Notes: generated from the letters alone by a model not told the origin. Counted from the stretch's first letter, positions 1,254 through 23,030 are shown. The stretch is 64,000 nt of DNA from an uncultured Candidatus Binatia bacterium (GCA_965242525.1 OZ251459.1:3744001-3808000); one strand, 5' to 3'. Program-made: numbers and translations.

Positions 1254-4200
1254 CTACTCCGTTTCGAAGCCTTGATCCTGGAACTTTAGTGTGCGCCCGT
1301 TCTCCGTGACCGTGCGAACGACGTGGTCCGGCGCGCCGTCGGGGAGTTCGGCTTCGATCTCCAAAGTCACCACTACCTTCGCTCCGACGAGGCCGGAGAG
1401 ATGCGCGACCACTTCCTCGGCGATGCGGCTCGCGTCCCGGCCCACACGGGCGGTGTCCAGGGTCACCGCGCCGTGGAAGCGACGGACCTTCTTTTCAGGA
1501 GTCGGCGGCGCCGGTTGCGCGTCCCGCACCGCGTCCACCCCGGCGCCGGCAGGGGCTTCGGCGGTCGAGGGCAAGGGCGGGGGCGTTTCCGCGTCCAGTT
1601 GCCGGCGGGCGGCTGACGGTTCGACCAGCAAGGCCGCGCTCTCCGGCGGTACGCCGGCGGCCTGTCCGCCCGCCCGCAGGCCGCGATAGCGCCCCGCGGC
1701 CTCGTCATGGCTGTCGGCGAACGCGAAGGCGTCGGTCTCCCAGGTCAGCAGCGCCAGGCCGCCCTCGACCGCCCGTGCGAGCACCTCAGGGCCGGCCAAG
1801 CGGGGCAGGTACGGATAACGGGCGAAGTCCTCCACGAGTTGCCGAACCGCCACGTGCTCGCCGCGCCACAGCGGCACTTCGTCCATGTGCCTGCGCAGGA
1901 CGGTGGCGCCGAGGGACGCAACCAGCAACTCGTCGTTGCGCAGCCGCTTGCCGGCGCGCTCCGCCAGCGCGCCCGCCCCCGTCAGGCGAATGGCCTGCCA
2001 GGACAGCGCCGATTGCGGCGTGGCCTGCTCCGGCGCCAGCAGCCACTGGTACGCCTCCGGCAGCCGCGCGACCACCGTGTCGTCGGCCGCCTGGAGCCGG
2101 GTCTCCGCCTGCCGGGTCTGGTGGGGGTCCAGGTTGAGGTCCTCCTTGTCCTTCAGGATCGAGGTCCAGGCCAGGTACTGGCGCAGGGCCTCGTCCAGGT
2201 CCTGGTAGCGCACCCGGTCCGCGGCCAGGAAGACCAGGGTGTTGCGGTACAGCCGGGGCGCGCTGCCGCGGGATTCCAGGATCGCCCCGGCCGCGGCCTC
2301 GGCCGCGTTGCCCGGCTCCCGGGAAAAGAGGTGCTCCGCGGACAGCACCACCAGCCGCGCATCCAGTTCGTCGGGCACGTCCGCGCCGGAGCGGGGCAGG
2401 GCGTGGATGCGGTCGAAGTCTCCGCGGGCGCGCAGGTCCGCCTTCAGCCGATCCTCCAACTCCTTCGCCGCCGGGTCCGGATTGCGCCGCAACTCCTCGG
2501 CCCGGTCCTCGGCGAGCTTGGTCACCGTGGGCTGCGTGGCGTACCACACCCGCGCGCCGTCCTGGTAGAGGTAGGTGGCGGCCGCGGCCAGACGGCGCAG
2601 CGCGTCGCCGAAGAGCGCCGGGGTCTCCCCCGGCATGACGCAGCCGAGCTTGACCCGTCCGTCGTCGATGCCGCGGTGGGCCGCCGCGGTGGTGGGGGCG
2701 GATCCGAGATAGACGGTGCGCGCCACCCGCCGCGCCGCGGAGAGCTTGCCGAGGCTCGGGGTTTCGGCATCGATCCTGAGGGGCAGCGAGTTCGGGCCGT
2801 CCACGTCCTTCTCGATCACCGGCGTCCAGTGCTCCGGGAGGTAGCGCGTGAGCTCGTTCTGCACCCGCGGGTCTTCGATGGGGATGGTGGAGGGCAGGAT
2901 GAGGGAGTTGCGGTCGCCGCTCTCCCACAGGCTGTGGACCACCGCGGCCATCAGGCGCAGCACGCCGCGGGTGCGCTGGAACCGGGCCAGCGCGGACCAG
3001 TCCGTGTAGAGGCGGTCGAAGATCTCGGGATGGATGGGGAAGGCGGCCCGGATGCGCCGCTCGTAGTCCGCGGAACGGCATTCGGAAGGGAACTCCACGC
3101 GCTGCGCACGGTAGGCGTCCGCGAACGCCCGGGCGGTCACGTCGCGCTGCTTGAACGCTTCCGGCCCTTCGAGAGGCTCGAACAGACGCCGCCGCACGAT
3201 CTCGAAGCCTTCCTCCGCGCTCGCGGCCCGCCAGGGGGATTCCACCCGCGCCACCACGTTGCGAAGCCGGTCCAGGGCTTCGCGCCCGCGGAGGCCGCCC
3301 ACCTCCGCGTCGTCCGCCTCGGCATGGGGCGAGCCGGCGCCCGACGGCGACGCATCGGAGGACGGCAGCGAGACCACCAGCAGGCAGTCCTTCGTCACCT
3401 TCACCGCCTCGGTGAGCGCCTGGGCAAAGGTGAACTGGGTCTCGAAACTGCCCGCGGGCAGGTCGCTGCCGTCGTGGAGCTGGCGCGCATAGGAGACCCA
3501 CTCGTCGATGAGCACCAGGCACGGCCCGTGGCTTTCGAGCAACTCCCGCAGCACGTCGCCGGGGTTGGTGGCGCGCTCGTCGTCGGCCCGCACCCGCTCG
3601 AAGGCCTCGGCGCCGCCGAGCTGGTGCGCGAGTTCGCCCCACAGCGTGCGCACCACCGTGCCGTCCGGCTTGGTGACCGGGTTGCCGGGCGAGATCTTGT
3701 TGCCCACCAGCACCACGCGGCGCACCGCCGCCACCGCATCGGCATCGGCCGCGGCCAACACTTCGTCGGCGCCCGTCAACTCCCGGGGCGCGACGCCCGA
3801 GAACAGGTGGTACAGGGCCAGCATGGAGTGGGTCTTGCCGCCGCCGAAGTTGGTCTGGAGTTGCACCACCGGGTCGCCGTCCCGTCCGGCTAGGCGCCGC
3901 ACCGCGGTGGCAAGCAGCCCCTTCAGGCTCTCGGTCAGGAACGTGCGCCGGAAGAACTCGTGGGGGTCCCGGTACTCGTCCGCGCCCTCGCCCAGGTGCA
4001 CCTGCCACAGGTCCGCGGCGAACTCCGCCTGCTGGTAGCGCCCGCTCGCCACGTCCGGGTGCGGCGTCGCCACCTCGCGCCAGGGTTTGAGCGCCCCGCT
4101 CCCCGCCGCCTCCACCAGCGCGCCGGCCGCCTTGCGCTTCTCGCCGCGCACCTGCTCGTCGAACATCAGCCGGCGAAGCTCCCTCTTGATCTTTGCGACC

Positions 4201-4589
4201 TCGCCGGCCTGCGGCGCCGACACCGCGGCGAGCAGCCGCTCCGCCGAATCCATCGCCCGGTCCGCATCGTCGCCCGAGAAGCGTTCCTGGTGCGCCCACT
4301 TGTTGCGCCACTCGCGCAACTCCGACACCAGACTCCGTTCGCTGAAGCCCAGGGTGTGCCGAAACACGTCGTTCCAGGTCTCCCACATCAGCCGGAGCAG
4401 CCCGGAGACGTCCCACTCCTCCATCGGCCTGTCCGCCAACATCGGGTCCTCGACGAAGCGCCGGATGGCGTCCATGCGCACGGCCTGGACCTTGACCCGC
4501 TCTGTGACCTCACGGGCAACGAAGGGCGCAAGCCCGGCGCGGAGCAGTTCCATCGCCTTGCCGACGCGGTCGTGGTTGGTGGTGGCCAT
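1254..4589 (-). CDS. DUF499-family AAA+ ATPase with N-terminal Swt1-like HEPN domain
   Basis: 1111 aa. RNKWAH (Rx4H HEPN-like), EFAADL, Walker A QTNFGGGKTH, Walker B LVLIDE, FPIHPE, FQRTRGVLR. Confidence 0.9.
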   Translation of the reverse strand: MATTNHDRVGKAMELLRAGLAPFVAREVTERVKVQAVRMDAIRRFVEDPMLADRPMEEWDVSGLLRLMWETWNDVFRHTLGFSERSLVSELREWRNKWAHQERFSGDDADRAMDSAERLLAAVSAPQAGEVAKIKRELRRLMFDEQVRGEKRKAAGALVEAAGSGALKPWREVATPHPDVASGRYQQAEFAADLWQVHLGEGADEYRDPHEFFRRTFLTESLKGLLATAVRRLAGRDGDPVVQLQTNFGGGKTHSMLALYHLFSGVAPRELTGADEVLAAADADAVAAVRRVVLVGNKISPGNPVTKPDGTVVRTLWGELAHQLGGAEAFERVRADDERATNPGDVLRELLESHGPCLVLIDEWVSYARQLHDGSDLPAGSFETQFTFAQALTEAVKVTKDCLLVVSLPSSDASPSGAGSPHAEADDAEVGGLRGREALDRLRNVVARVESPWRAASAEEGFEIVRRRLFEPLEGPEAFKQRDVTARAFADAYRAQRVEFPSECRSADYERRIRAAFPIHPEIFDRLYTDWSALARFQRTRGVLRLMAAVVHSLWESGDRNSLILPSTIPIEDPRVQNELTRYLPEHWTPVIEKDVDGPNSLPLRIDAETPSLGKLSAARRVARTVYLGSAPTTAAAHRGIDDGRVKLGCVMPGETPALFGDALRRLAAAATYLYQDGARVWYATQPTVTKLAEDRAEELRRNPDPAAKELEDRLKADLRARGDFDRIHALPRSGADVPDELDARLVVLSAEHLFSREPGNAAEAAAGAILESRGSAPRLYRNTLVFLAADRVRYQDLDEALRQYLAWTSILKDKEDLNLDPHQTRQAETRLQAADDTVVARLPEAYQWLLAPEQATPQSALSWQAIRLTGAGALAERAGKRLRNDELLVASLGATVLRRHMDEVPLWRGEHVAVRQLVEDFARYPYLPRLAGPEVLARAVEGGLALLTWETDAFAFADSHDEAAGRYRGLRAGGQAAGVPPESAALLVEPSAARRQLDAETPPPLPSTAEAPAGAGVDAVRDAQPAPPTPEKKVRRFHGAVTLDTARVGRDASRIAEEVVAHLSGLVGAKVVVTLEIEAELPDGAPDHVVRTVTENGRTLKFQDQGFETE

Positions 4590-4612
4590 GGGGTCCTCCG
4601 TTTATCCTGCTT

Positions 4613-5185
4613 CTATCCGGCATCGGGCGGCATCGCCGCTTGCAGGCGTTCGACTCCTTCCAGGAAAACCTGGAAGCTGCGCGAACGGTTCTCCCGCGAC
4701 AGATGGCTCGCCATGCGCCTTGCCCCCAGACGCTTCTGGAACTCGGGTATCTGCTTGGCGATAGCCTTGGAGGGATGGACGACGGTATCCGGATTCCGGT
4801 ATTGCGCTCGGTTCAGTTCGCGGAGCGGGCGTCTTCGAGATTCCGGGAACGCCCGCACGAGCGCTTCCGGGTCACCGACGTACCAGGCTTCGAGCTCCCG
4901 GCAGACCACCCGAACGAGCGCATCGGGATGCCCGGCACTCCGGCACAGGTCGGCCAGCCTCGCCTTGAGTTGCCGACAGTCCGCGCTGTCCTGATCCCGC
5001 GCCACGACGAAACCCACGCCAGGCTCCCGCCAAGCCCGCAGCTTCCGCGGGATGCTCCTCTCCAAATCCTGCTTTCCGTCGTGGGGGACGCACTGGAACC
5101 GAAGTGCGGGAAAGAGCCTCGGCAGGAGACCGTCCAGCAAATCCGCCATCGACGGTTCCTCCACCAGAAAGACGATCTTCGTCAT
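4613..5185 (-). CDS. DUF4276-like TOPRIM-fold protein (partner of the upstream ATPase)
   Basis: Start MTKIVFLVEEPS overlaps the ATPase stop (ATGA). Motifs VVARDQD, ELEAWY and NRSRSF. Confidence 0.8.
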   Translation of the reverse strand: MTKIVFLVEEPSMADLLDGLLPRLFPALRFQCVPHDGKQDLERSIPRKLRAWREPGVGFVVARDQDSADCRQLKARLADLCRSAGHPDALVRVVCRELEAWYVGDPEALVRAFPESRRRPLRELNRAQYRNPDTVVHPSKAIAKQIPEFQKRLGARRMASHLSRENRSRSFQVFLEGVERLQAAMPPDAG

Positions 5186-6357
5186 TGCGGATCCGCGCCT
5201 TCGAACAGCCGCTGTCGCCAAAGCGCGCCGGGGAGGTCTCCTTCTTCGACCAGACCGCGCAGGAGTTGGCTGTCGCTTCCGCGCCGAACCACGGAGAACC
5301 CGTTCACCTTTTGCAGCCAGTAGATCTCGTCGAGTTTCGCGCCGCTCAGGAAATCGGGCGAGTGGGTCGAAACGAATGCCTGCCCGCCCCGGCGTGCGTA
5401 GTCCCTGAATTCTTCGATCAACTCGCCGAGCAGCGAAGGATAGAGCTGGTTCTCCGGCTCTTCTATGGCGAGGAGCGGATGTGGCTTCGGGTCGTGGAGC
5501 AACACCAGATAGGCGAACATCTTGATCGTGCCGTCCGAGACGTAGCGGGCGATGAACGGGTCCTTGAAGCTGCCGTCCCGGAACCGCAGCACCAAGCGGC
5601 CGTCCTCCGTAGGCTTCGCCTCTACAGCCTTCACCCCAGGGACGCGCGCGCGCATGGCTTCGAGCACACGCTTGAACTGCTTGGGGTGATGCTCGTACAG
5701 GTATTGGGCAACCTGCGCCACGTTGTCCCCTCGGCTAGAAAGATGTTCGGCATAACCGGCCTCAGCGCTTGGCCTCGCATCGGCGATATGAAAGTTCGAA
5801 ATGTGCCAGTTCTCGATCAGGCTTCGGAATTCCGAGACGACACGAAACTCTCGGAACTGGCCAAGGCCCTTGATCGCCAGGATGCTGGGATCGTCCAGCT
5901 CGTATTCTTCCCGCTCTTCGTCCGCGCCCGTCCCGTAAACAGACTCGTTCGTGATTGCTGTACCCTTGCCATTCGAGAAATCGACGAAGTGCCACGGGCG
6001 ACCGGACCCCTGACCTCTCCGATAGCGTAGCACCTCACGACCAACCACCACTCGGCTACCGTCAGCCGCTATTTCGAGTATGTACGTGGCCAGACGGCCA
6101 CCGCTCTCTCGAAACTTCACCGTAATCGCGATTGGACCTCGTTTCCCACGACTGACCAGTTCCCGGAACCCGCCGCGCCGAGCGACCGCGGAAGCGGCGT
6201 TGCCGGCGAGGGCATCCTTCAGGAACGTGAACACGTCGAACAGCGTCGATTTACCCGTTCCGTTTGCGCCGATGACTACAGCCATGGGAGGCAGCATCGT
6301 CAGTCCGACGTGACGGAACACGCGGTAATTCTTGATCTCTATCTGTTCGATCTGCAT
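5182..6357 (-). CDS. ABC/AAA_21-type ATPase
   Basis: Walker A GANGTGKS, signature SDGT, Walker B IEEPEN, H-loop STHS. Confidence 0.9.
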   Translation of the reverse strand: MQIEQIEIKNYRVFRHVGLTMLPPMAVVIGANGTGKSTLFDVFTFLKDALAGNAASAVARRGGFRELVSRGKRGPIAITVKFRESGGRLATYILEIAADGSRVVVGREVLRYRRGQGSGRPWHFVDFSNGKGTAITNESVYGTGADEEREEYELDDPSILAIKGLGQFREFRVVSEFRSLIENWHISNFHIADARPSAEAGYAEHLSSRGDNVAQVAQYLYEHHPKQFKRVLEAMRARVPGVKAVEAKPTEDGRLVLRFRDGSFKDPFIARYVSDGTIKMFAYLVLLHDPKPHPLLAIEEPENQLYPSLLGELIEEFRDYARRGGQAFVSTHSPDFLSGAKLDEIYWLQKVNGFSVVRRGSDSQLLRGLVEEGDLPGALWRQRLFEGADPQ

Positions 6358-6441: not shown

Positions 6442-6459
6442 GTGGTTGGTGGTGGCCAT
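6442..6459 (-). pseudogene. Remnant of the DUF499 gene 5' end (MATTNH)
   Basis: ATGGCCACCACCAACCAC is identical (18/18) to 4589-4572 and overlaps the upstream stop as TAATG. Confidence 0.75.
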
Positions 6460-8024
6460 TATTGCAGTTCCCTCCAGAGGCCGATTCGCTCCTCCAGCCC
6501 TCGGACCAGGTCGCCAACCTGGTATCCCATGGTCTCCGCCTCTTGCCGGCCAACGATCCTGGCCAAGTCCGCGACGCTCCTGTTCAGGCGACGGGCAAGT
6601 TCGCTCACCATCCGTTTTGCAGGCGCTCCCTTCTCCAAACTACGCGCCATCAACTGCTCGATAGCCCGCATCTGCTCTTCGATGTCGCCGGCGGACATAC
6701 CCAAGGAGGTTTCGTAGGCGTCAGGCCGGCGTTCCAGCACCTCCCAGACCCACTGCTCGGGTGGCCCATCGCTTGGCAGAAACAGCGGGCGGAAACCGTG
6801 ACCGTAGCGTTCGGCTATGCTTCTCAATTCCTCCTCCCGGTCCCTCGAATCGCCATCCAACACGAAAATGAAGCTCGAGAGGCCACGGAACTTGCCGAGC
6901 GCCCGGATGTGCGCCGGAAACTCGTCCCTGCCCGTGTTCCGGCCAATCAGGAAGTCGTCCGGGCGTAGTTGCAGCCGCGGCTGCAGGACATCGAGCACGC
7001 CAAGGAGGACTCCCTCCGCCACTTCGTCCTCGCAAAGGATGGAGAGTTGCTCGCGGGATTGACCGTACAGGGCCTTCTGGAAGATGTCCCGATGCGGTGG
7101 CAGCATCTGGACATCCAACGTCCGTTCGTCTCGATCCAGGAACAGCCTGCCTTCCGGAGGCACACTGTCGAGCACCACCGGACTGTGCGACGCCACGATG
7201 ATCTGCAATCTCTGGCGCAAGGCCAACCGCTGAAGCTCCAGCATGAGCTGCTGTTGCGTATAGGGGTGCAGGCCGGTCTCTATCTCGTCGATCAACACGA
7301 GCGCGTCTTCAAGGCCGGAGACGTCCCTGGAAATGCGCAATACCGTGCGTTCGCCGGAAGACATGTGGAACTCCGAATAGCGGGCATCCTCGTTGTCCTT
7401 TGCCTCCGCAAACAGAATGTCCCGCCCTTCGGCGCTGATGACGGACACTTGCCGGTAGCGCTGGGGCAAGATACTGTCGGAGAGCCGGAGCAGGTCCGGC
7501 GTTATGGTCGATGAAAGGTAGTTCTTGCGCATGAGCTGAAGCACGCCTCGCGTATCCGCAGGATTCGTGAGGTTGGGCAGCGTCCGCAGATAGACCTGTC
7601 GCGTGGGCTGCTTCGCCCCCCTGCGTCCCATGAAGCCCCGACTCCACGTTTTGCGCCGCCGCCACGTCATGGAAGTCCGCTCGCCGCCATCCACGTAGAA
7701 GTAGGCGAACTCAGCCTCCTCGATGCGATCCGACAGGGCGCCTCGCAGCCGATCGGTGAAGGCCGGAAACAGGCTGGCCGGCCGGAGCGCCGAGGACGCG
7801 ACGCCAAGCGGCTGGTACGCGCATGCGCAGGCGAGCAGCACCGTGGTCTTGCCGCAGCCATTGCCTCCCGCCAAAACCGATACGGGATAACGCAAAACCA
7901 CCCGCAGATCCTTGACGCCGCGGAAGTTCCTGACCCGAACCTCTTCCAGGCTGAAGTCACGTTGCGGATTCGTTGCCCGCAACACATTCCAAACGGTAGC
8001 CAGCTCTGCGCCAATCAACGACAT
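6459..8024 (-). CDS. OLD-like ABC ATPase fused to a C-terminal TOPRIM domain
   Basis: Likely start MSLIGAEL (8024). Walker A GGNGCGKT, MSSGE, LIDEIE, ASHS, then LCED...LDGD TOPRIM motifs. Confidence 0.82.
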   Translation of the reverse strand: MSLIGAELATVWNVLRATNPQRDFSLEEVRVRNFRGVKDLRVVLRYPVSVLAGGNGCGKTTVLLACACAYQPLGVASSALRPASLFPAFTDRLRGALSDRIEEAEFAYFYVDGGERTSMTWRRRKTWSRGFMGRRGAKQPTRQVYLRTLPNLTNPADTRGVLQLMRKNYLSSTITPDLLRLSDSILPQRYRQVSVISAEGRDILFAEAKDNEDARYSEFHMSSGERTVLRISRDVSGLEDALVLIDEIETGLHPYTQQQLMLELQRLALRQRLQIIVASHSPVVLDSVPPEGRLFLDRDERTLDVQMLPPHRDIFQKALYGQSREQLSILCEDEVAEGVLLGVLDVLQPRLQLRPDDFLIGRNTGRDEFPAHIRALGKFRGLSSFIFVLDGDSRDREEELRSIAERYGHGFRPLFLPSDGPPEQWVWEVLERRPDAYETSLGMSAGDIEEQMRAIEQLMARSLEKGAPAKRMVSELARRLNRSVADLARIVGRQEAETMGYQVGDLVRGLEERIGLWRELQ

Positions 8025-8062
8025 GTCGGTTCCCAAAGGCACACTTCGGTGGTTGTTGGTCC

Positions 8063-11000
8063 TCAAGCGGTTGCGCTTGGCTGTTCGAGCAGGGTCCCCT
8101 GCTCGCCGCGCTCTTCGCGTGCGAGGCGGGCGATCTCCGGCCAGCTCTGGACGAGCGCGTTGTAGGACGAGGCTTCCGCGGCGCGGCTCCGGCGCTCGGC
8201 GACAGCGTAGAGGCGGTAGGCGAGCTCGCGGGCGGTCTCGGCGACCCCGCCGAGTTTGCGGACGAGTCCCGCGGCCGCGGTCTCGCCCCCGGTTTCGAGG
8301 GCGCGAACGAGTTGATGGACCGTTTCCCAAGCGGTCAGCCTCGGGTCCGCGGCCGGGTCCCAATCCGCGGAAAGCTCCTCGGGCTCCAGCAACCGGACCT
8401 TGCCCGCCTTCGATGCGAGGACGCCGGCCTCCACCAGTCCGCCGACGCTGGTGTTCTTGGCCTTGGAGAGCGTCTCCGCGGCGCCGTACTCGCCCGCTTC
8501 GAATCCGTGCTGCTCGAACCACGCCAGCGCCCAACGGCTGTCGGCGTCGAAGTCGCCCTCCTGCTCCGCAAGGGTTTCGTCCAGGGTCTGGTTGATGAGC
8601 GCCAGCGCCTCCCGGACCGACACCGACTTGCCGGAGGCGTCCAGCACCCTGGCGTAGCGGGTATAGACCGCCATGCCGGGGCCGATGGCCGCCTGCGCCA
8701 GATCCACCGGCGCGATGTTGCCGGATTGCAGGTGGGCGAGGGCAGCGGGAAGCTCGGCTTTGAGCGCCGCCACGAACTCCCGGCGGGTGGCGAGGGAGGC
8801 GTCGGCCGGGCGTTTGCGGCAGACGAGGACGATGGAGGATGCGAGGGCGTTGGCGCCCATCCCGATCATGCGATTGCCGAGCTCAGTACGCATCGGCCAG
8901 GTACCGGTAACGGCGAAACCGGCACGGATCACGGCGTCGAGGAAGGTCTCCCATCCATTGCTGACCCCTGGGAGCGCGGGCGTCCCGCCCGCATTCGTCC
9001 TGCGGATACTCTCCGATTGCTTGAACGCATAGTAGATCGTGACCGGAAAGGAGGGATATGTCTGTTCGGCGAGGCGCTGCATGGCCCGCGTCATCCCGTC
9101 AAGAAAGAAGGTTTCGGCCTCGTCCTTGCCCCCGTGCCGGTAAGGAGTAGCGACCAGTTCCTCCGCCTTCGGGACGGCGAGCGTGGCGAAGAGATCGGGG
9201 AACGTCGAGCGTAATGACCGGCGCAGCCAGACGTAGAAGAAGTCGGACAGATCCGCGTAGCCGACGTTGTCGTAGTAGGGCGGGTCAGTTGATACCAACT
9301 TCCAAGTCGACAAATCTTGTTGAGCAGTAGCATCGAGCTGACAGGATCGCCCGAGTGTTCCACTTCGAAATTGTTTTTCTACGACTTCATAGACGGACTT
9401 CGTAGTTCCGAAGACATCGCCTCCGGCTCCGGCAAGAGGATTGGTCTCTGCGAAATCCCATACCATCGGCAGCGCTTGGCGACTGAATGTACCGACAAGC
9501 TTGTCTCGTTGTTCCCACCGACACAGGCCGGTGTTTCGGTCACACGCCTTGCTCTGCGCGAAGGCCAGATACACTCCCACCGCCTCGGCATACGCTGTTG
9601 CGCTCGTGCCACCGTCACGCAGGGGGAGATCGTCCCCTGGGAGCGCGGGCGTCCCGCCCGCATTTTCCTTGAGCGGGCGGGACGCCCGCGCTCCCAGGAT
9701 GTCCTGCTTGATCCGCGCGATTGCTTCCGTCACCAAGTCGGAGAAGGTGGTCAACGCGACCAGTTGGCGGGGGGTGAAGAGGTCCCCCCAGATCGTCAGG
9801 CCGTAGGGCACGCAGGTTCCGCCGGTGAGCCTCGCCGGAACGTCGCCGTCCGGCCGCCACTCCGGCTCCGCCTCCCGGGCGCGCTCCTCATGCTCCGACG
9901 TGGGCGCCAGATAGACGCGCCCGTGATCTCCCTCCGCGACGATGGCCATCAACCGGGCGCCCATGCGGCCAGCCTTCCCTTCGGCCTTGATGTAGTCACC
10001 GGCGACCGGCATGTCGGACATCAGGCAGCGGAAATTCGCGCCGCGGCCCAGCTTGGTTCCTTGTGTGGGCGGGAAGCCCGCGTCCTCCCGGGACACGCCG
10101 TTCCCGGAATGCATGGATTCCCGCTTACGCGGGAATGACGAGGATGGGGTCGGGATGTCCGCGCTACCAGGAGCGCCGGCCTTTGGTGCGCCGGTTCCAG
10201 GAGGACCTACCTTCACCGTGAAGCGGTAGCCGTCCTCCCCGACTACCGGCTCGACATACGCCTCCTTGCCCTTCTTCGTCGAGAGCATGAAGGTCGAGGC
10301 CAGCGGTACGTCCACGTCCCGGAACGCCGGGTTCGGGCTCTTGACCGTGCGTGCCCACAGCCACGCGATGACGGTCAGCTTCCGGCCCACGTACCGTTCC
10401 AGGTCCGGCCGCTCCCGCGCCATCGCCGCGGTGACCTCGACCTTCGGATACAGATGCCCGATGCGCTTTTCGGCCTCGTCGCGCATCCATCGACCGTAGT
10501 AGCGCACGTCCTCGGCCAGCCCTTGCGCGCCCTTCCAATCCTCCCGCTCAATCAGCGACTCCTTGGCGGCCGGTGCGTCGGGGCGGGCCTCGGGGTTCAC
10601 CGGCGGGCGGCCGGCGAACTTCGGCGGGATCTCGATCATCGCCTTGTTGATGAGCACCGCCACCGGGTTCAAGTCCGAGGCATGGGCTTCCAGCCCCAGG
10701 CGCTGCGCTTCCAGCGGCAGCGCGCCGCCGCCCGCGAACGGATCGTGGAAGGCCGGCAGCCGGTCGGGGTCGAACAGTTCGTCCGCCCGCGGATGGTCGC
10801 GATTCTCCGCGCAGGTCCGCCGCCAGCTTGTCCGGATCTCGTCGCGGGCGGCCTGCAACAGCGCCTCGTTCGTGGTGTTCTCCCACTTCACCAGTTCCTC
10901 GATGAGGCGGAACAGCCGCCGCCGTTCCTTCTCCTGGGCTTCCTCCGTGGGGAACCGGTCCGGCGACGCGGAGGGGTCGTCCACCATCTGCGCGAAGATC

Positions 11001-15025: not shown

Positions 15026-15048
15026 ACCGTGCGAATAGGCGTCCGTCG

Positions 15049-16758
15049 TCATGCGAAGTCCGACCTCCACAAGTGCACCGCTCGTCCCGCAAGCCTGCGC
15101 TGGCGTTCGTCCATCAACTCCGGCGTCCATCGTTCGGGCGCCATCTCCGGGATCCGCCGGGTGAGGGCATAGGCGCTATTGCCATAGGCGTCGAGCTTGT
15201 CGGCATAGGGGCCGTTCCCCACGTTGCGGTTGGCGGCGGGTTCCAGGAGAGTGAGGTTGCCGAGCCGATAAACGGATGCTTCCCATCGTTCGGCGGGGAG
15301 AGCCTCTCTCCATGCCTCCGCTGGATTCTCCGGGAGGATATGCTCGATGCTGCCGGGGTCGGTCTCCGGATCGCAGGCATGGCCCGCGGCGTCTTGTTCG
15401 AGCCGCGCGAGGATATACTTCGCGAGCTTTTTCCTCTGGCCGCGGGTGTTGACCACAAGCAGGGCGAAGTTCTGCCGTGTCCTTTCGTCGTCCACGTAGA
15501 TCGGCTTGAGATGCTCGAACACGGCGGCCGGAGTGCGAGCATCGCCGTCCATGACCGCTTTCGCGGCACGGTGGTAAGCCGGTTCGAGGGCGTTGGTGTT
15601 GAGGCCGCTGACCACCGTGTAGCGGAACGAGATCACGCTGACGAGTTTCAACACGCGGACGAAGTCGTTTCCGTCCAGGGACTCCCAAGCGGCGAACAGC
15701 AGCGGCATGGCCTGCCGCACCCGGAACAGGTTGAGGTCGCGGATGTATTCCTTCGCATCGGGCAAGTCCATCCAGTAACCGTGGTTCGGGTCCGAGACCG
15801 CGGCGAACAACTCGGCGCGGCCTTCGAGATCGTCAAGGAGCTGGAACACATCGGCCGCCGTCCTCGTCCGGTCCCGCACCAGCTTGAACAGACGCTGGCT
15901 CCGAACCTTCGGCTGCTCGCAAAGCAGGTGGTAGCGAAGGAACTCCGGGAAACGCTCCTGGTCCACCGTGGCCATGAGCGACCGCCAGCGGCGATGGAGG
16001 GCTTCGAGATCGGTAGGAACGCTGATCCGGGAGAACAGGTAGTTCTTGAGCAAGTCGGTAGTCGTCAACTCCAGGCCGCGCGCATTGAGCGTCTCGAAGA
16101 CGGTATAGGCGTTCAGCTCGTCTTCCACCGTGATCAGGATGAAGAGAAGCTGACGGGCCACCGTCTCGGAGAGAAGGCCGGCCACGGCCTGACCGTCGTC
16201 GCGCAATTCATCCAGGGTGTCGAGTTGCTTGCCAAAGTAACGGAAACAATCCCGGAGGAGGCGGTTCGACTTCGGCAACCCCCTCGGGTTGCGCGGCTCC
16301 CTGAGTTGGACCAGGTAGTCCTGGTAGAAGGCGTTGTCCGTTTCGTTCAGGTAGAGGCGGCTGCTTTCGATGAGCGACGCCGGGTCTTTCTCCCCAACGA
16401 AGCGGTTGCGGAGCTCCTGTCCCCGTTCCCTGTTCGCGTCGGACTCGATTCCGCGTTCGGCCAAGGCCCACAGCCTGGCGATCACCGCGAGCGCGAGAAG
16501 GCTGAGCGTGGCGAGACGCTGCTGGCCGTCGATGACGAGGAACTCGCGGTCGTTCTTCCCTTCGACGACGAGGGCGCCCAGGTAATGGCGGTCTTCCGGG
16601 CGCGGCCTCAGATCGACGAGGTCGTTCCAGAGGTCCTCCCACTGTTCCTCCGACCAGGAGTAGTCGCGCTGGTACGGAGGGACCCGATACGACCTGCCGT
16701 TGCCGATCAACTCCAGGTAGTTGATCGTGCGAGTATCCAGGATGTTCGTTCCTGCCAC
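15049..16758 (-). CDS. GmrSD-type DUF262 + DUF1524/HNH protein (type IV restriction-like)
   Basis: VPPYQRDYSW, IDGQQR, VFETLNARG, C-terminal IEHILP...LGNLTLL...N. Confidence 0.9.
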   Translation of the reverse strand: MAGTNILDTRTINYLELIGNGRSYRVPPYQRDYSWSEEQWEDLWNDLVDLRPRPEDRHYLGALVVEGKNDREFLVIDGQQRLATLSLLALAVIARLWALAERGIESDANRERGQELRNRFVGEKDPASLIESSRLYLNETDNAFYQDYLVQLREPRNPRGLPKSNRLLRDCFRYFGKQLDTLDELRDDGQAVAGLLSETVARQLLFILITVEDELNAYTVFETLNARGLELTTTDLLKNYLFSRISVPTDLEALHRRWRSLMATVDQERFPEFLRYHLLCEQPKVRSQRLFKLVRDRTRTAADVFQLLDDLEGRAELFAAVSDPNHGYWMDLPDAKEYIRDLNLFRVRQAMPLLFAAWESLDGNDFVRVLKLVSVISFRYTVVSGLNTNALEPAYHRAAKAVMDGDARTPAAVFEHLKPIYVDDERTRQNFALLVVNTRGQRKKLAKYILARLEQDAAGHACDPETDPGSIEHILPENPAEAWREALPAERWEASVYRLGNLTLLEPAANRNVGNGPYADKLDAYGNSAYALTRRIPEMAPERWTPELMDERQRRLAGRAVHLWRSDFA

Positions 16759-16882: not shown

Positions 16883-17353
16883 TCAACCATCATCCAGCGC
16901 GTCTTTCAGTGTTCCACCGCACCGCACCAGCGCGACTCGTCTCGTTTGTCCGCGCAGGCGGACTTTGCGGGAGCGGAATTCGTTTCGCTGCCTGATCCGA
17001 AGATCCCTCCCGTGAGCGAGAACCGGGACGAACTGGAACGCGCTGTCGTCCGGAAGCCATGCCTCCACGGTTTCAGCCCCACCCTGCAGTTGGTCGACGA
17101 CCTCCGCTGCATCGAAACGCCCGCTTTTCAACTCGATCGGAGCGACCCAGGCTTTGGTATTCTTCTCACCGACGAAAACGTAATCGCACCGCTTCCGGTC
17201 ATCCGGAATATGCAGATCGTGACAATCGAGATCGACCAGTACCCTCTTCACCCTGGCTATACTGACGGAAAGCGTACATCCTTCCTTACTGCAAGAGTTG
17301 AAACGGCACCGGTCGGGAACGGTGTCGGAGACGACCGCAACGAGGCCCTTCAT
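16883..17353 (-). CDS. Small putative PD-(D/E)xK nuclease-fold protein
   Basis: Start MKGLVAV overlaps the ATPase stop (ATGA). KRCDYVFV...PIELKSG...QLQGG. Confidence 0.6.
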   Translation of the reverse strand: MKGLVAVVSDTVPDRCRFNSCSKEGCTLSVSIARVKRVLVDLDCHDLHIPDDRKRCDYVFVGEKNTKAWVAPIELKSGRFDAAEVVDQLQGGAETVEAWLPDDSAFQFVPVLAHGRDLRIRQRNEFRSRKVRLRGQTRRVALVRCGGTLKDALDDG

Positions 17354-18906
17354 CCGCGGGTGCTTTCTTGCGCACGGTTGAAAATGGCGGCGCTTGCGTT
17401 GTACAGCGCCTCGCTCACGACGCCGTAATCGGTGGGATACATGCCGGTTTCCGGATTGAACGGCACTTCCTCCACGACCGACCCCTTCGGTCGCTTCGTA
17501 GGCTTGAACAGCCACGCGCCGACCTCGTCCGGGCTGAGCGCGACGTCGGCCCCTGTAATTCCCGCCTGCCGGTTCGCGGGCAAGGAAGAAAGTCCGACGA
17601 GGTTGCCGATCTGTTCGAGAAACCACTCGCTGTGCGTCGTCATGACGATACGCACGCCGGCACGAACCAGCCTCGCCAGTTCGAGCGCAAACGCCGCCTG
17701 CATGGCAGGGTGCAGGTGAGCTTCCGGCTCCTCGATGATGAGCAACTCACCAGGCCGGACCACGTACCGCAGATACAGCACGACCGGCGCGAGTTCCGAC
17801 ACCATGGACGAAGCCCGCATCAGCGGCAGGTCGTCCTTCCAGCCCTCGGGGCGATAGGCGAACGTCGGGTAGCCGGTCTCCGAACGCTCCAGACGAACCC
17901 TTCCCTGGAGGATGTTCTTTTCCAGAAACGCCTCGAGCTTGGGCGCCGGTTTCCCGAAAGGACGCCTTGCAACGGGCCTTCCCGGTGCGCTCATTTCAAT
18001 CAGTTGGCTCAGAAAATCCCCCAACACGCCGGACAGCATCGGGACGTCACGAGAAGGGCGGAGTCCTGCGGTCGTGGCGTTCTGGACCAACGTGCTCACG
18101 ACCACCTGATGACTGTGCATGACACCGGTGCGGTCGGCTGGCAGGTAGTACGCGTTTCGGGAGACCGGGCCAAGCAGGGAAGCGAATATGGGCCTCGGTA
18201 AAAACCTCAAGAGGGAGTCCAACTCTTCGTCATCGTCTTCTTCTTCTGTTTGAAACATCCCGAGCTCCATCACATGCGTCACATTTTCGGGCGAAATTCC
18301 GGACGTCAACGAGATTGTCCTGGGAACTTCGCTGGACAAGTGAATTTCTTTCTGGCCGAATTCGAGTTGATATCGAACCTGCCCGGCGTCGGTTTCCTGT
18401 GGAAGATGCATCCTGACGCTTGTACGGGGATGAGTGTCCACACGCCGCACCAACTCACCAAGACGATCGACACCGAAACATCGACATATCTCCTGCTCCA
18501 GACTGCCCTCAAGACCCTTGTACCGTTCCAGCATTTCCCGGATAGATACGGCAAGGTTTTCAGGGAATGTCGGAAGCACGGCGTTTTCCGACACTTTCGA
18601 AAGCCAATCCTTCAGGTTTCTCCGCATTGAAGGAGTGATCGGGCGAACGGGTTCGAACGGCGGCAAACGGATAGAACCACGGAGTAGGCGGTATCCTCGG
18701 CGGTCATAAGGAAAACTATTCTGCCCGCCGAAACACTGGTGCAGGGCGTAGATCAGAATCGCCAAATAGGATTTGCCGGTGTTGCTCGGGCCGATGAACA
18801 CCGTGAGCGGCCGCAGGTCCACGCTGGCTTTGGCGATCGGCCCGAAATTGGTCACGTCGAGGCGATAATCGCCGACTATTTGCGACTCAGGGGCGGACGT
18901 GTTCAT
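17350..18906 (-). CDS. ABC/AAA_15/21-type ATPase
   Basis: NFGPI, Walker A GPSNTGKS, LPADR, ASSMVSE, IIEEPEAHLHP, TTHS. Confidence 0.9.
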   Translation of the reverse strand: MNTSAPESQIVGDYRLDVTNFGPIAKASVDLRPLTVFIGPSNTGKSYLAILIYALHQCFGGQNSFPYDRRGYRLLRGSIRLPPFEPVRPITPSMRRNLKDWLSKVSENAVLPTFPENLAVSIREMLERYKGLEGSLEQEICRCFGVDRLGELVRRVDTHPRTSVRMHLPQETDAGQVRYQLEFGQKEIHLSSEVPRTISLTSGISPENVTHVMELGMFQTEEEDDDEELDSLLRFLPRPIFASLLGPVSRNAYYLPADRTGVMHSHQVVVSTLVQNATTAGLRPSRDVPMLSGVLGDFLSQLIEMSAPGRPVARRPFGKPAPKLEAFLEKNILQGRVRLERSETGYPTFAYRPEGWKDDLPLMRASSMVSELAPVVLYLRYVVRPGELLIIEEPEAHLHPAMQAAFALELARLVRAGVRIVMTTHSEWFLEQIGNLVGLSSLPANRQAGITGADVALSPDEVGAWLFKPTKRPKGSVVEEVPFNPETGMYPTDYGVVSEALYNASAAIFNRAQESTRG

Positions 18907-19137
18907 GTTCGTCTCCCGTATCAACCGTCTGCCGGGAACTGCACGCTGTCTTCAACATCCTCTCGAACCCCAGGCCGGCCGCGGTTTCGCAGAACCGGAT
19001 CTCTTCTTCATCTGCGGTCTGGATGGCGGTCCATTCCTCTTGCAGGAAAGTATCCTCGATACCGCGAACTACGAGCCGCCGAAACGCAGGTTCGCATCCG
19101 ATCGAGCGGCGCCTTCGCGCCGACCCCGTTGGCTCCC

Positions 19138-19166
19138 AGTATACAACCGTCGTCTTTGCCCGTCGA
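19138..19166 (-). promoter_or_regulatory. Putative sigma70 promoter TCGACG-N17-TATACT just downstream of the helicase stop
   Basis: Same -35, same spacing and a near-consensus -10 as the copy at 14880-14908. Confidence 0.6.
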
Positions 19167-19208
19167 CCCTGGCTTCGGCCGGGCAAGCGGCCAGGTTTCC
19201 CGGAGCCG

Positions 19209-22200
19209 TCACCCCGGCTCCTCCCCTCGCGCCAGCAGATCGTCCAGCTTGTAGTTGACGCTCACCGCCCCGAAGTCCGGCTCCCGCTCGAAGGGCTCGC
19301 GCACGTAGCGCACCCGGGGTTCCCCTTCGTCCGGGAACACGACGATGGCCAGGATGAAGTCCTCCGGTTTGTTCAGGGCGGTGAGGATCTCGTTCTTGGT
19401 CACCGTGACGCTGTCTGCGTCCGCAACGCGCCCCTTCACCTCGATGAAGCGCAGCCGGCCGGTTCCGGGGACGCGGCTCTCGATGTCGTAGCCGAGCTTT
19501 TCGGTCTCGCGGTCCACCGGCTCGAACCCGAGCCGGCGCTCGACCTCCATCACCACGGCGCGCGCCCGGGCTGCGGACGCCTGGGTGTCCGCTACCCGCG
19601 GCGTTGCCGGGCCTCCTCCGGTCATGGCGGCGACCAGCCCCATGGGCGCGACCACGAGGCCGCCGATGACCACCGGCGGCAACGCCGAAATCCGCGCTTC
19701 GCCGTCGAGTCGGGCCATGCGCCGTTCCAGGCGTTCCTGCAGGTCGTCCGCACGCCGGCGCGCCTCGCCGGAGTTGAGCCGCGCCCCCGCCTTGCCGGCC
19801 TGCTCCTGGAGCTTGAGCTGGTCGGCGCGGTGGTCCCAGTAGGCGATCTCCTTGGTCAGGCGTTCCTTGACCGCGGCCCGGGTCTTGTCGATCCACGCCA
19901 GGCGGCGGTCGCGGACCTCTGCGGCGTGCTCGGGCGCCACGTGGGCGATGGCCTCGCGCCGCGCCGTCTCCTCCAGCCCGGGGGCGATCCACGCGCACTC
20001 GGGCCGGTCGAGGACGTCGGCCGCGGCCGGTTCGCCTTCCGCGAGCGGGCGGTAGTCGAGGTACGGCGCGTGGCGGAGACGGTGCGCGTTTCCGGCGGCG
20101 TCGAGCTCCACGTACAGCATGCGCCGGGAGATCGTGCGGCCCTCGCCGTCCGGCAGGGGACTGGCGTCCCGGATGGCGTGCTCCAAGGTGAACAGCACGC
20201 GGGTGTCGAGTCCGGGGTCGCGTTCGTCCACCAGGACCGCGCCGCGCCGGAGGAGGCCGCGCCCGCGCTCCAGGGTGAGGTCCAGGACGGCGTCCAGGAG
20301 GGGATGCCCCGGGCAGAGGAAGGCGGCGGGGGGTTGCGTTCCCGCGGGAGGGGCGGTTTGGGTCTCCGCGGCGGAAGTTGCAAGCGGGCGGGACGCCCGC
20401 GTTCCCAGGGAGGACGGGGCGGAAGGCTCTTGGGGGCGGGGCGGCGGCGTTCCCGGGGAGGCCGGGCCGGAAGGCTCGCGGGAACGGGCCGCCCGCGTGT
20501 CCGGCGGGGCCAGCAGGGCCTTGTCGAAGACAATGCGCTCGTAGCGTTGCAACACCGGCTCGCCGGCGCCGTTCCGACGGTCCCGGTTGCGTACCGGGGC
20601 GGGGACGTGGGTGACCTCGTAGCGGCGCGGTTCGCGCTGGCGCACGGCGCCGCCGAGGCGGCGGAAGGCTTCGAGGAAGAACGACTCCACGTAGTGCGGC
20701 TGCAACCGGCGGGCCTCGGCGCGTTCCATGTCTTCCCGCACGCGGGCCACGCGGGTCGAATCCATTGCGTCGTGGGCGAGGGCCCGCTCCTCGACCAGCG
20801 CTTGCAGGCGCGGGCGGTCCACCGCCTGGCTCACCGCGCGGGCGAGCCGCGCCCGCACATCGGGACGGTCGCCGTAGCGGACCGCCTCGACCAGCAGGTC
20901 GCGCAGGCGGCTGCCCTCGAACCGGAGCTTGCCGAGCACGTCGAAGACCTGGCCGCCGAGGGCGTGCCGGGCCTGCTCCAGCTTGTCCAGGAGTGTCCGG
21001 TACACGTCGCCCTCGCGGGTCTCCTCCGCCACCAGGTTCCACAGGTGGCAGACCTCGGTCTGGCCGATGCGGTGGATGCGTCCGAAACGCTGCTCCAGGC
21101 GGTTCGGGTTCCAGGGCAGGTCGTAGTTCACCATCAGGTGGGCGCGTTGCAGGTTGATGCCCTCGCCGGCCGCGTCGGTGGCGAGCAGGATACGGACTTG
21201 CGGGTCGTACAGGAACGCCTCCTGGGCCTTGCGGCGTTCTTCCCGGCCCGTGCCGCCGTGGATGACGGCGATGGCTTCGGGGCGGCCGAGGAGCGTCCCG
21301 ATCCGCCGTTGCAGGTAGTCGAGGGTGTCCCGGTGCTCGGTGAACAACACCAGCTTCTGGCCGGGCGAGGGAACCGGCGGCGGGATGGCGCCGCTGCCGT
21401 AGGGGGCGGGGTCTTCGGCCACGTGGCCGCCGGCGTCCAGCCCGGCCGGCGTGAAGACCTCCCCCAGCAGGCTCGACAGTTCCCGCCACTTGGCGTCGCC
21501 GCCGCTGCGGAGTACCTGCCCCGCAAGCGCTTCGAGGCGCTTGAGCGATGCGATCTCGGCGTCGAGCTCCGCGATGGTGCTTGCTGCGGTGGCCTGATCC
21601 AGCACCGCGGCCTCCGCGGCTTCGAGCTCGGCGCCGGGGGCCTCGTCGAGGTCCTCCACGTCCTCGGCTTCAAGCAGCGGCCCGCCGTCCGCAAGGGAAG
21701 GTGCGCCGGGACCCAGGGGGCGCACGTCCTCGGCGTCGAGAGGCGGACCGCCGCCCCTGAAGCCATGCGTCTCCGCGGCGCCGCGCCCTGCGCCGCGTTC
21801 GAGGAGCGCCAACTCCCGCAGTCGGCTTTCCAGCCGTTCGCGCCGCCTTCGCAACGACTGGTAGATGGCCTCCGGGGACGAGGCAAGGCGGCGTTGCAGG
21901 ATGGTGAGGGCAAAGCCGACGGCGCCGGCGCGCTTGTCGTTCTGCAGCGCCTCGGCACGGTTGAACTCGCCGCGCACGTAGTCGGTGACCTCCTCGTACA
22001 GGCGGGCCTCCGGGGCCGAAAGCCGGTAGGGCACGCTGTAGGCGATGCGCTCGGGAAAGAGCGGCCGGCCGTCGAACTTCCGCAGGTTCTCCTTCACCAT
22101 GCGGCGCATCAGGTCGGAGACGTCCACTTGGTGCACTCCGTCCCGGAAGCGGCCCTCGAAGCGGTCGCCGTCGAGCAGCGACATGAAGAGCTGGAAGTCC

Positions 22201-23030
22201 TCCTCCTTGCCGTTGTGCGGCGTCGCCGTCATCAGCAGGAAGTGGCGAGTGAGGCTCGACAGAAGCCGTCCCAGCCGGTACCGCTTGGTGTACTTGACCT
22301 CGCCGCCGAAGAAGGCGGCCGACAGCTTGTGCGCCTCGTCGCACACCACGAGGTCGTAACCGCAGTCCGGCGCCCTGAGCTTGGCCTGGATGTCCTCGCT
22401 TCGGGCCAGCTTGTCCAGCCGCGCGATGGCCAAGTCGTTTTCGAGGAACCAGTTGCCGGTGCGGGCGGCCTCCAGCTTGTCGTTGGTCAGGACCTCGAAG
22501 GGGAGTTGAAAGCGGCGGTACAGTTCGTCCTGCCATTGCTCGGCCAGGTTCCCGGGACACACCACCAGGCAGCGCTGCAAGTCTCCTCGGGCCATCAGCT
22601 CCTTGACGAGCAGCCCGGCCATGATGGTCTTGCCGGCGCCCGGGTCATCGGCCAGCAGGAAGCGGAGCGGCTGGCGCGGCAGCATGGCTTCGTAAACCGC
22701 GGTGATCTGGTGCGGCAGCGGCTCCACCAGCGACGTGTGGACCGCCAGCAGCGGATCGAACAGGTGCGCGAGGCGGATGCGCTGCGCCTCGGACACCAGA
22801 CGGAACATGGCCCCGTCTCCGTCGAAGCTCCACGCGCGCCCCTGCTCGACCACCTCGAGCCGCGCCTCGTCGTGACGGTAGAGCAACTCGTTCGCCACCT
22901 TGCCGCCCGGCGTCTCGTAGGTCAGCTCGATGGCCTCCGACCCGTACCACTGCACGCTGACCACGGTGACCGGACCGTCGGCAAGAACGCCGCGCAGAGT
23001 GGCCTGGGAACGAATGTCTTCCAGTTTCAT
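19209..23030 (-). CDS. SNF2-family helicase with C-terminal DUF3883 (PD-(D/E)xK) nuclease domain
   Basis: LADDPGAGKT, DEAH, TATPH, QRFGRIHRIGQ, C-terminal GYDIES...FIEVKG. Confidence 0.93.
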   Translation of the reverse strand: MKLEDIRSQATLRGVLADGPVTVVSVQWYGSEAIELTYETPGGKVANELLYRHDEARLEVVEQGRAWSFDGDGAMFRLVSEAQRIRLAHLFDPLLAVHTSLVEPLPHQITAVYEAMLPRQPLRFLLADDPGAGKTIMAGLLVKELMARGDLQRCLVVCPGNLAEQWQDELYRRFQLPFEVLTNDKLEAARTGNWFLENDLAIARLDKLARSEDIQAKLRAPDCGYDLVVCDEAHKLSAAFFGGEVKYTKRYRLGRLLSSLTRHFLLMTATPHNGKEEDFQLFMSLLDGDRFEGRFRDGVHQVDVSDLMRRMVKENLRKFDGRPLFPERIAYSVPYRLSAPEARLYEEVTDYVRGEFNRAEALQNDKRAGAVGFALTILQRRLASSPEAIYQSLRRRRERLESRLRELALLERGAGRGAAETHGFRGGGPPLDAEDVRPLGPGAPSLADGGPLLEAEDVEDLDEAPGAELEAAEAAVLDQATAASTIAELDAEIASLKRLEALAGQVLRSGGDAKWRELSSLLGEVFTPAGLDAGGHVAEDPAPYGSGAIPPPVPSPGQKLVLFTEHRDTLDYLQRRIGTLLGRPEAIAVIHGGTGREERRKAQEAFLYDPQVRILLATDAAGEGINLQRAHLMVNYDLPWNPNRLEQRFGRIHRIGQTEVCHLWNLVAEETREGDVYRTLLDKLEQARHALGGQVFDVLGKLRFEGSRLRDLLVEAVRYGDRPDVRARLARAVSQAVDRPRLQALVEERALAHDAMDSTRVARVREDMERAEARRLQPHYVESFFLEAFRRLGGAVRQREPRRYEVTHVPAPVRNRDRRNGAGEPVLQRYERIVFDKALLAPPDTRAARSREPSGPASPGTPPPRPQEPSAPSSLGTRASRPLATSAAETQTAPPAGTQPPAAFLCPGHPLLDAVLDLTLERGRGLLRRGAVLVDERDPGLDTRVLFTLEHAIRDASPLPDGEGRTISRRMLYVELDAAGNAHRLRHAPYLDYRPLAEGEPAAADVLDRPECAWIAPGLEETARREAIAHVAPEHAAEVRDRRLAWIDKTRAAVKERLTKEIAYWDHRADQLKLQEQAGKAGARLNSGEARRRADDLQERLERRMARLDGEARISALPPVVIGGLVVAPMGLVAAMTGGGPATPRVADTQASAARARAVVMEVERRLGFEPVDRETEKLGYDIESRVPGTGRLRFIEVKGRVADADSVTVTKNEILTALNKPEDFILAIVVFPDEGEPRVRYVREPFEREPDFGAVSVNYKLDDLLARGEEPG

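Follow-up and report, generated by a model that had tools for sequence, protein, structure and literature searches.

Truncated core-gene ends at cassette joints of Hma defence loci suggest integrase-free stacking of embedded genes

The Hma (Helicase-Methylase-ATPase) locus at positions 1254-23030 of a 64,000-nt stretch of DNA from an uncultured Candidatus Binatia bacterium (GCA_965242525.1 OZ251459.1:3744001-3808000; the whole stretch is here called the window) carries short, truncated copies of the ends of its own core genes at joints between embedded accessory genes. Such scars recur in related Hma loci: at least one significant truncated, co-oriented extra core-gene end was present in 14 of 80 loci, and nearly all of the fragments include the terminus that faces an accessory-gene slot. 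These recurrent, terminus-specific scars provide indirect but consistent support for integrase-free stacking of cassettes anchored in the core genes. The explanation we favour, and consider probable, is exchange between one Hma locus and another, with a single homologous crossover inside a core gene and an illegitimate joint at the other end, i.e. homology-facilitated illegitimate recombination (HFIR). Under this scenario the slots would have been filled stepwise with independent anti-phage modules.

Judged from its genes, the locus is an Hma (Type-1 BREX-related) restriction-like system, and the anti-phage role known for the family is predicted here on the same basis. Twelve co-oriented genes lie on the minus strand: hmaA, six accessory genes (slot 1), hmaB, three accessory genes (slot 2) and hmaC, each core gene being present once, on one strand and in the order A-B-C. 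A first, sequence-only reading of this DNA had already described six and three co-oriented accessory genes between the core genes, and open reading frame (ORF) calling, Pfam and PADLOC agree on that arrangement. It had also placed a diverged copy of the helicase 3' end with its promoter, and copies of the DUF499 5' end, at the joints. Both were recovered, the promoter part as a consensus match only.

The hmaA scar of slot 1 was found by repeat search, self-BLAST and alignment: positions 14855-15035 copy positions 19113-19292 over 181 nt with 84% identity (E 8.5e-50). It starts 13 nt past the GmrSD stop codon, and its hmaA part is in frame, with a stop codon earlier than that of the resident gene. 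The intergenic part of the repeat has two copies in the window and none in the 79 related loci. In slot 2, the hmaC 5' end is copied exactly (18/18) at 6442-6459 and more weakly (11/12) at 8049-8060. Allowing up to three mismatches, the 18-mer occurs in the 64 kb only at 4572-4589 and 6442-6459, with 0.01 occurrences expected. For the 12-mer, allowing one mismatch at most, the window has four matches versus 0.24 expected, three of them at the hmaC start, past the HEC-04 stop and past the hmaB stop. At the other joints of the window (ATPase pair/GmrSD, Schlafen/TIR and TIR/hmaB), hidden Markov models (HMMs) of the core-gene ends gave no scar better than E 3-7.

The 181-nt repeat also carries promoter-like sequence. 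Between 4300 and 23600 there are four sigma-70-like sites versus 2.2 expected, and the two top sites on the minus strand fall one in each copy of the repeat: TCGACG-17-TATAAT at 14908-14880 in the scar copy (10/12 by consensus match) and TCGACG-17-TATACT at 19166-19138 in the resident copy (9/12, likewise). As both copies hold the best promoter-like sites of the region, the repeat might be a functional duplicate, a promoter module kept under selection, and the short hmaC words might be chance matches; the 18-mer alone has an E value of 0.05 in a 27-kb self-BLAST, and a short match in another locus (L056) looks like chance. However, about 84 nt of hmaA coding sequence and a stop codon would be superfluous for a promoter, the short words lie exactly at the predicted joints, and other loci have far longer homologous scars. 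Given the comparative data, an origin by function or chance is disfavoured and appears highly improbable.

The related loci were collected by a profile search of genome contigs with an HmaB alignment, which yielded 79 loci, each with flanks of up to 10 kb. The genomes searched are one per species, and none of the 79 loci is from a close relative of the window. They come from many phyla, with core proteins 52-82% identical, and their core genes were placed by tblastn. Slot 1 ranges from 8 to 8795 nt and slot 2 from 0 to 9023 nt; in compact loci, the hmaB stop codon and the hmaC ATG are 0-17 nt apart. Slot 1 exceeded 300 nt, and was counted as filled, in 46 of 59 measurable loci, as did slot 2 in 25 of 52. 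Cargo varies at the same two slots and end-scars recur, as the sequence-only reading had proposed for such a comparison.

HMMs of the four slot-facing core-gene ends were run with nhmmer, filters off, on the 79 loci and the window. Second full copies (L026, L044) and inverted copies (L021, L045, L054, L055, L009, L068) were set aside as real genes, together with genes cut by contig ends (L039, L079). Scars of the hmaA 3' end were found in L059, L019, L046, L072 and the window (E 2.4e-27, 3.2e-19, 1.7e-14, 3.2e-11 and 3.1e-8, respectively). The hmaB 5' end has left scars in L018 (1.3e-30), L031 (4.6e-17), L038 (8.7e-15 and 3.4e-5), L052 (2.8e-7) and L040 (6.4e-6), and the hmaC 5' end in L036 (2e-10), L049 (3e-5), L044 (3.1e-4) and, at the same junction as in L049, L018 (0.012). 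One hmaB 3' scar was found in L009 (6.5e-12). The hmaC 18-mer and 12-mer of the window are too short for these end HMMs. Counting fully visible slots, a scar was detected in 7 of the 46 slot-1 regions that are filled and in 4 of the 25 such slot-2 regions; in L044 a further hmaC scar separates the tandem hmaB genes.

The bias of these fragments toward slot-facing termini was seen with HMMs of whole genes as well. At E up to 0.01, 14 non-genuine fragments were kept after removal of the rows for real genes that are truncated at contig ends or interrupted by insertions (L008, L014, L035, L039, the second row of L040, L045, L064, L069, L074 and L076). The slot-facing terminus is included in 12 of the 14, for which a simple binomial estimate is at most 7e-12. 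The five hmaA fragments all have their last HMM position at 3575-3581 of 3582; of the hmaB fragments, five begin at positions 3-27 and one lies at the 3' end; and the hmaC fragment begins at position 1. The 5' end and interior of hmaA and the 3' end and interior of hmaC are not represented among the 14. In a cruder and noisy control that counted 18-mer matches of at least 14/18 on the forward versus the reverse strand, hmaC 5' ends gave 5 versus 0 (of 25) and hmaB 5' ends 6 versus 1 (of 46).

The scars are co-oriented and stand at cassette joints. In L072 the order is hmaA, the Septu pair PtuA/PtuB, the scar and then older genes, and in L036 a scar separates PDC-M68 from HEC-03. A scar precedes an AbiL pair in L046 and HEC-03 in L059, and in both L018 and L049 the hmaB stop codon is followed by a scar and HEC-01. 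L038 holds a PbeA-like block, an hmaB 5' scar, a GmrSD-like gene, another hmaB 5' scar and a DUF4062/HATPase_c_4 gene, so that both scars stand directly before the first gene of a cassette. Homology between scar and resident gene ends at a start or stop codon, the exception being the hmaA scar of the window, which runs on through 96 nt of intergenic DNA. One pair of loci may show a before and an after: the L059 scar with its next 200 nt aligns with the hmaA end and downstream DNA of L050 (70.7% over 396 nt), the two hmaA genes are 83.5% identical, and L050, whose slot 1 is 622 nt, resembles L059 as it would have been before the insertion. Also in L059, a 259-aa ORF of no known family (6598-7377) runs into the hmaA 3' scar and stops at the stop codon of the scar; it may be chimeric.

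Because the scars are extra ends of hma genes, cargo insertion must have involved other hma-bearing DNA rather than random insertion into a spacer. Under HFIR, cargo would come in on DNA of another Hma locus. The first crossover would be homologous and lie within a core gene, and the other end would be joined illegitimately, slightly inside the resident copy of the same core gene. The product would be a full-length, possibly chimeric, core gene followed by the new cargo, a truncated slot-facing remnant of the resident gene and the older cargo. In slot 1 of the window, an hmaA-anchored event would have set the ATPase, the 247-aa gene and GmrSD beside hmaA and left 14855-15035, and the promoter-like site in that scar would still drive the older block (the 260-aa gene, Schlafen and TIR). 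In slot 2, two hmaC-anchored events may have brought HEC-04 first and then HEC-01, leaving the remnants at 8049-8060 and 6442-6459, respectively. Had the direct repeats been longer, homologous recombination between them would have removed the new cargo again, which is probably why the scars are short.

A direct repeat of a gene end around new cargo would also arise without any illegitimate joint. If a repeat-flanked cassette were excised as a circle by RecA-dependent loop-out, it could re-enter an Hma locus by a single Campbell-type crossover in a gene end, again leaving a full gene and a truncated copy. The 181-nt repeat of the window is long enough for RecA, and the scars of L036 (56/57) and L044 (33/35) are nearly identical to the resident ends. 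However, efficient RecA recombination needs a minimum length of homology, and the scars of 12-44 nt in the window, L018, L049 and L044 are at or below its usual value. Moreover, the first circle would still require an illegitimate event, and no circular form was observed. We consider this route unlikely.

It is also conceivable that the array was acquired already complete, or in large blocks, through two-sided homologous recombination or transfer of the whole locus, and that the scars record events elsewhere. L018 (1540-16466) and L049 (4400-18344), from genomes labelled Solirubrobacteraceae and Isosphaeraceae and thus from different phyla, bear on this. They share about 90% nucleotide identity over hmaA and over the 3' part of hmaB, HEC-01 and hmaC, versus 79-83% over the remaining hmaB, which suggests recent transfer of the whole Hma locus between phyla. 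As the identity is patchy, the core genes are mosaic, and whole blocks move between lineages with their scars, here the hmaC scar, HEC-01 and hmaC. The HEC-01 junction common to both differs from that of the window, where it is either independent or heavily remodelled. That the locus of the window adjoins a tRNA gene, and that most filled slots are scarless, would likewise fit ready-made import. Yet import shifts the origin of the scars elsewhere and leaves it unexplained, and the intergenic part of the 181-nt repeat, confined to the window, points to a lineage-local event. Import as the full account is distinctly unlikely in our view.

The joints might instead be made, at specific sites, by a trans-acting dedicated recombinase or mobile element (a tyrosine recombinase, a REP-associated transposase or an insertion sequence). 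Some mobility functions do occur in Hma loci: 3.1% of Hma-embedded genes are mobility-associated according to the main text of Payne et al. (bioRxiv 10.1101/2024.01.29.577857), a DDE transposase lies in a slot of L072, tyrosine recombinases are encoded in L054, L055 and L021, and REP-like elements lie within hmaA and hmaB of the window. However, the scars measure anything from 12 to about 280 nt and have no border sequence in common, which disfavours fixed site-specific recombination. The enzymes of L054, L055 and L021 sit between inverted hmaB copies, away from the scars, and the REP-like elements are not at joints. Among the tested ORFs of the nine other scar-bearing loci, a transposase was found in a slot only in L072 and none in the other eight. 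For the window, Pfam scans of 15 ORFs of the locus and then of 28 ORFs (26 from the flanks and two locus ORFs again) revealed no integrase or transposase domain, including Phage_integrase, in those ORFs, which were picked greedily at 120 aa or more and many of which have no Pfam match. A general repeat search found no attC-like array and no recurring imperfect inverted repeats at the joints, though no attC-specific model was applied. A Rfam scan of 1-27000 at gathering thresholds returned tRNA only and no RNA element in the 181-nt repeat. Within these limits the searches are in line with the sequence-only reading, which had seen no integrase, transposase or attC-like array, and action in trans is disfavoured and very unlikely.

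An assembly artefact, with two strain variants joined in series through a common core-gene end, would be easier to entertain for metagenome-assembled genomes, from which most of the related loci come. But the copies are diverged (84%) and truncated rather than identical, the gene product of the window is listed on a 4.15-Mb contig, and scars are also present in an isolate genome (L072) and in assemblies labelled as single chromosomes (L009). Such an origin is extremely improbable.

Several observations weigh against HFIR between Hma loci. Among filled regions, 39 of 46 for slot 1 and 21 of 25 for slot 2 show no detectable scar; as most filled slots lack one, cargo may commonly be exchanged by ordinary two-sided homologous replacement. 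Two of the fragments do not include a terminus (hmaB HMM positions 114-205 in L007 and 2223-2296 in L037). The 18-mer control shows no excess for hmaA 3' ends (1 forward versus 3 reverse, of 46), and the L056 match, which coincides with the start of a cargo gene, may well be fortuitous. The metagenomic origin of most related loci counts here as well. No donor/recipient pair was seen in a collection with one genome per species, so the illegitimate joint is inferred, and the promoters are putative, by consensus match. In L038, the scar nearer to hmaB is the more diverged one (58/94 versus 80/105). Finally, of the 16 scars with a resident end, 8 rank closest to the resident gene's own end, which intragenomic duplication or loop-out and re-entry would fit equally, although closely related donors fit as well.

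These points bear unevenly on what the sequence-only reading had proposed. That the core genes act as recombination anchors agrees with scars that recur, face the slots and lie at joints, and is weakened by the scarless majority of filled slots. A roughly chronological array agrees with slot 2 of the window, where the 18/18 copy is near hmaC and the 11/12 copy farther away, and not with L038. The scars had also been expected to group with alleles of other strains. This was not observed: eight are closest to their resident end and the others too short to resolve, with relatives that are too distant for such a comparison.

Table 1. Features of the Hma locus and adjoining DNA in the window, in order of descending coordinate, with evidence and remarks.
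Feature	Coordinates	Strand	Evidence and remarks
hmaA, SNF2/DEAD helicase with NOV_C C-terminal domain; core gene, slot-1 anchor	19209-23030	-	PADLOC HmaA 1602.5 bits; Pfam SNF2-rel_dom, ResIII, Helicase_C, NOV_C
Resident repeat copy: true hmaA 3' end and downstream promoter-like site	19113-19292	-	
ABC-type ATPase, PD-T4-4_A-like	17350-18924	-	Pfam AAA_15 4.4e-20; PADLOC PD-T4-4_A 8.2e-35
247-aa ORF	16883-17626	-	weak PADLOC PDC-M47B 2.3e-6; no Pfam match
GmrSD-type nuclease, HEC-06	15049-16758	-	Pfam GmrSD_N 3.8e-38, GmrSD_C 7.2e-25; PADLOC HEC-06 4.2e-208
hmaA 3' scar: terminal ~84 nt of hmaA, own stop codon included, and 96 nt of downstream intergenic DNA	14855-15035	-	
260-aa gene, no assigned family	14032-14814	-	no Pfam/PADLOC match; Atlas score 0.97, hypothetical-protein clusters only
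Schlafen AlbA_2 + HATPase_c_4 gene	12693-13949	-	Pfam
TIR-domain gene	11270-12448	-	Pfam TIR_2 1.7e-16; low GC 0.49-0.51; promoter-like site at 12649-12620
hmaB, DUF1156 N6-adenine methyltransferase	8063-11251, likely start 11158	-	Pfam DUF1156 2.8e-32; PADLOC HmaB 1500 bits; product P0001 = 1031 aa
Older, degraded hmaC 5' scar, 11/12	8049-8060	-	just past hmaB stop, where hmaC starts in compact loci
HEC-04, ABC ATPase	6459-8024	-	PADLOC HEC-04 8.6e-35, residues 196-646 on profile positions 27-450
hmaC 5' scar: first 18 nt of hmaC (4572-4589) including ATG, 18/18	6442-6459	-	overlaps HEC-04 stop codon
HEC-01 ABC-type ATPase (AAA_21/AAA_15)	5182-6357	-	Pfam; PADLOC PDLC04144 8.8e-171
HEC-01 partner gene (DUF4276)	4613-5221	-	Pfam DUF4276 7.1e-11; PADLOC HEC-01 model PDLC04143 1.9e-54
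hmaC, DUF499 ATPase with N-terminal HEPN_Swt1; core gene, slot-2 anchor	1254-4589	-	Pfam HEPN_Swt1 2.2e-33, DUF499 1.4e-27; PADLOC HmaC 1110.9 bits
tRNA-Ala(cgc), possible island boundary	1129-1204	+	ARAGORN; Rfam

Some of the accessory genes call for comment. The 247-aa ORF is a probable partner of the adjoining ATPase, and its true start is probably later, given its 277-nt overlap with the ATPase ORF. The HEC-04 ORF as called extends to 8534; an in-frame ATG at 8024 agrees with the profile start. In the GC profile, 1254-23030 lies at about 0.60-0.75 and falls to 0.49-0.51 at 11001-12500. By GC, this stretch with the TIR gene is probably the newest or most foreign cargo, yet it has no flanking scar. 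The tRNA-Ala(cgc) gene lies 50 nt from the hmaC stop codon, and such tRNA genes are typical insertion points of islands. An island linked to this tRNA through an att repeat was rejected, since no second copy of the tRNA-Ala 3' end was found within the window. A second restriction-like gene (N6_Mtase + Type_ISP_C, 1196 aa) is located at 43747-47337, about 20 kb from the Hma locus.

Other repeats lie in and around the core genes. A REP-like palindromic 23-mer occurs in frame in hmaB as a doublet and a singlet (8965-8995 and 9634-9698), in hmaA (20384-20410, within tandem 48-nt repeats at 20367-20510), and at 23215-23237 and 46390-46412. Relatives have a complete in-frame Y1_Tnp (REP-associated transposase-like) domain at this hmaB site; PF01797 was present in 11 HmaB clusters among 120 listed. 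The hmaB genes of L023 and L060 with a Y1_Tnp-type insert are unbroken ORFs of 3675 and 3579 nt, and hmaB of L077 (1860-5531) has a different in-frame insert at the same hinge, resembling by eye a small endonuclease domain. A second repeat family, with a 31-nt core, has 11 copies in the window versus 0 expected (937-1080, 23080-23166, 23343-23429, 25101-25267, 26144-26254, 26517-26687 and more up to 63907). Mutually inverted copies stand just beyond the two outer ends of the Hma locus (990-1042 versus 23114-23166, 87% complementary), and the family may be a miniature mobile element.

Rearranged core genes were seen in several related loci. In L054 (5668-10001), L055 (5616-10001), L021 (9624-15593) and L045 (2402-10001), a second, partial hmaB (about residues 38-870) is inverted relative to the full gene. 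Tyrosine recombinase genes lie between or beside the hmaB copies, as a tandem pair in L054 and L055 and singly in L021, and none was detected near the inverted copy of L045. These inverted copies look like an invertible specificity switch, comparable to the type I hsdS shufflons. In L009 (10001-18687), both hmaB (at about residues 624/652) and hmaC (at about 682/685) are broken, and the DNA between the two breaks is inverted, with an hmaB 3' scar and HEC-01 downstream of hmaC. L044 (7033-12883) has a tandem hmaB pair with a 35-nt hmaC 5' scar between the genes, and in L026 (3523-12901) a complete hma set has one more hmaB after it. Core genes themselves can thus be cargo, as in L044 and L026.

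It is tempting to extend HFIR beyond the Hma loci, and we do so tentatively, with somewhat less confidence than doubt. The core genes of Hma, and by analogy of BREX, DISARM and type I restriction-modification systems with embedded genes, may be recombinase-free landing pads, in which DNA with one hma end delivers a module by one-ended homologous recombination. Only insertions with short scars would survive, longer ones looping out, and the scars and duplicated promoters would record how the arsenal was assembled. This would be a general, host-encoded way for defence islands to grow without mobile-element machinery. If it is general, embedded systems would spread along with their host system with no need for transposases, the scars could help to mark out cassettes and to discover new defence genes, and there would be hints as to how new modules might be loaded into such loci in the laboratory. 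The scars give a concrete, testable answer to why defence genes nest in other defence systems.

The embedding itself is already published. According to the main text of Payne et al., 931 of 1,485 Hma systems hold embedded genes, 96.7% of the embedded genes are co-oriented with the flanking system, and HEC systems, approached through 'guilt-by-embedding', defend against phage. The Hma loci described there have, like the window, three core genes in order and co-oriented modules including HEC-01, HEC-04 and HEC-06. That survey capped embedded genes at three per slot, and slot 1 of the window has six; the locus is a heavily loaded, otherwise ordinary member of a known system. As the stacking of accessory genes inside Hma systems was thus known, what is new here is narrower than the sequence-only reading had announced. 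The same main text states that the significance and origin of embedding 'remains to be explored', has no occurrence of remnant, scar, truncat- or recombination, and does not contain the recurrent terminus-specific scars. Type-1 BREX-related (BR) DUF499-centred systems are another name for the same gene set (Nucleic Acids Research 2026, PMC12839542), with a DUF1156 methyltransferase, a DUF499 ATPase with HEPN and a helicase as in the window; that work is a classification, and its sections on these systems mention embedded nucleases and not the route of acquisition. A 2025 review covers the embedding approach and, in that coverage, gives no mechanism. Within the texts it reached, a full-text literature search found no description of Hma core-gene remnants or of HFIR for defence-gene embedding.

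Other defence genes are nested in a comparable way. PrrC inside EcoprrI and BrxU inside BREX are second-line defence genes within restriction-like systems, as noted in the main text of Payne et al.; these are functional pairings, and the accounts given there describe no acquisition scars. Integrons resemble the Hma locus in that cassettes are added at a fixed point, older ones move away and a resident promoter reads in. Unlike integrons, the Hma locus revealed no IntI-type integrase or attI/attC array in our searches, its junction lengths vary, and the promoter-like site is duplicated with the scar. The closest likeness in mechanism is with type VI secretion system (T6SS) effector-immunity arrays, for which HFIR has been proposed with an explicit comparison to integrons (Kirchberger et al. 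2017, PMC5361080), in a text that also cites Rhs C-terminal displacement and orphan modules of contact-dependent inhibition (CDI) systems. As described there, T6SS arrays have, like Hma loci, a conserved anchor gene with new modules added beside it and older ones, with remnants, moved further away, and no integrase takes part; what is displaced in T6SS arrays is the toxin gene's variable end, and the genes retained are immunity genes. The Hma loci differ from these arrays in that whole defence modules lie between three enzyme genes, either side of a slot may serve as anchor and the core genes stay intact. They nevertheless share two features with such arrays, conserved anchor genes bordering variable slots (0 to about 9 kb) and truncated remnants between the modules.

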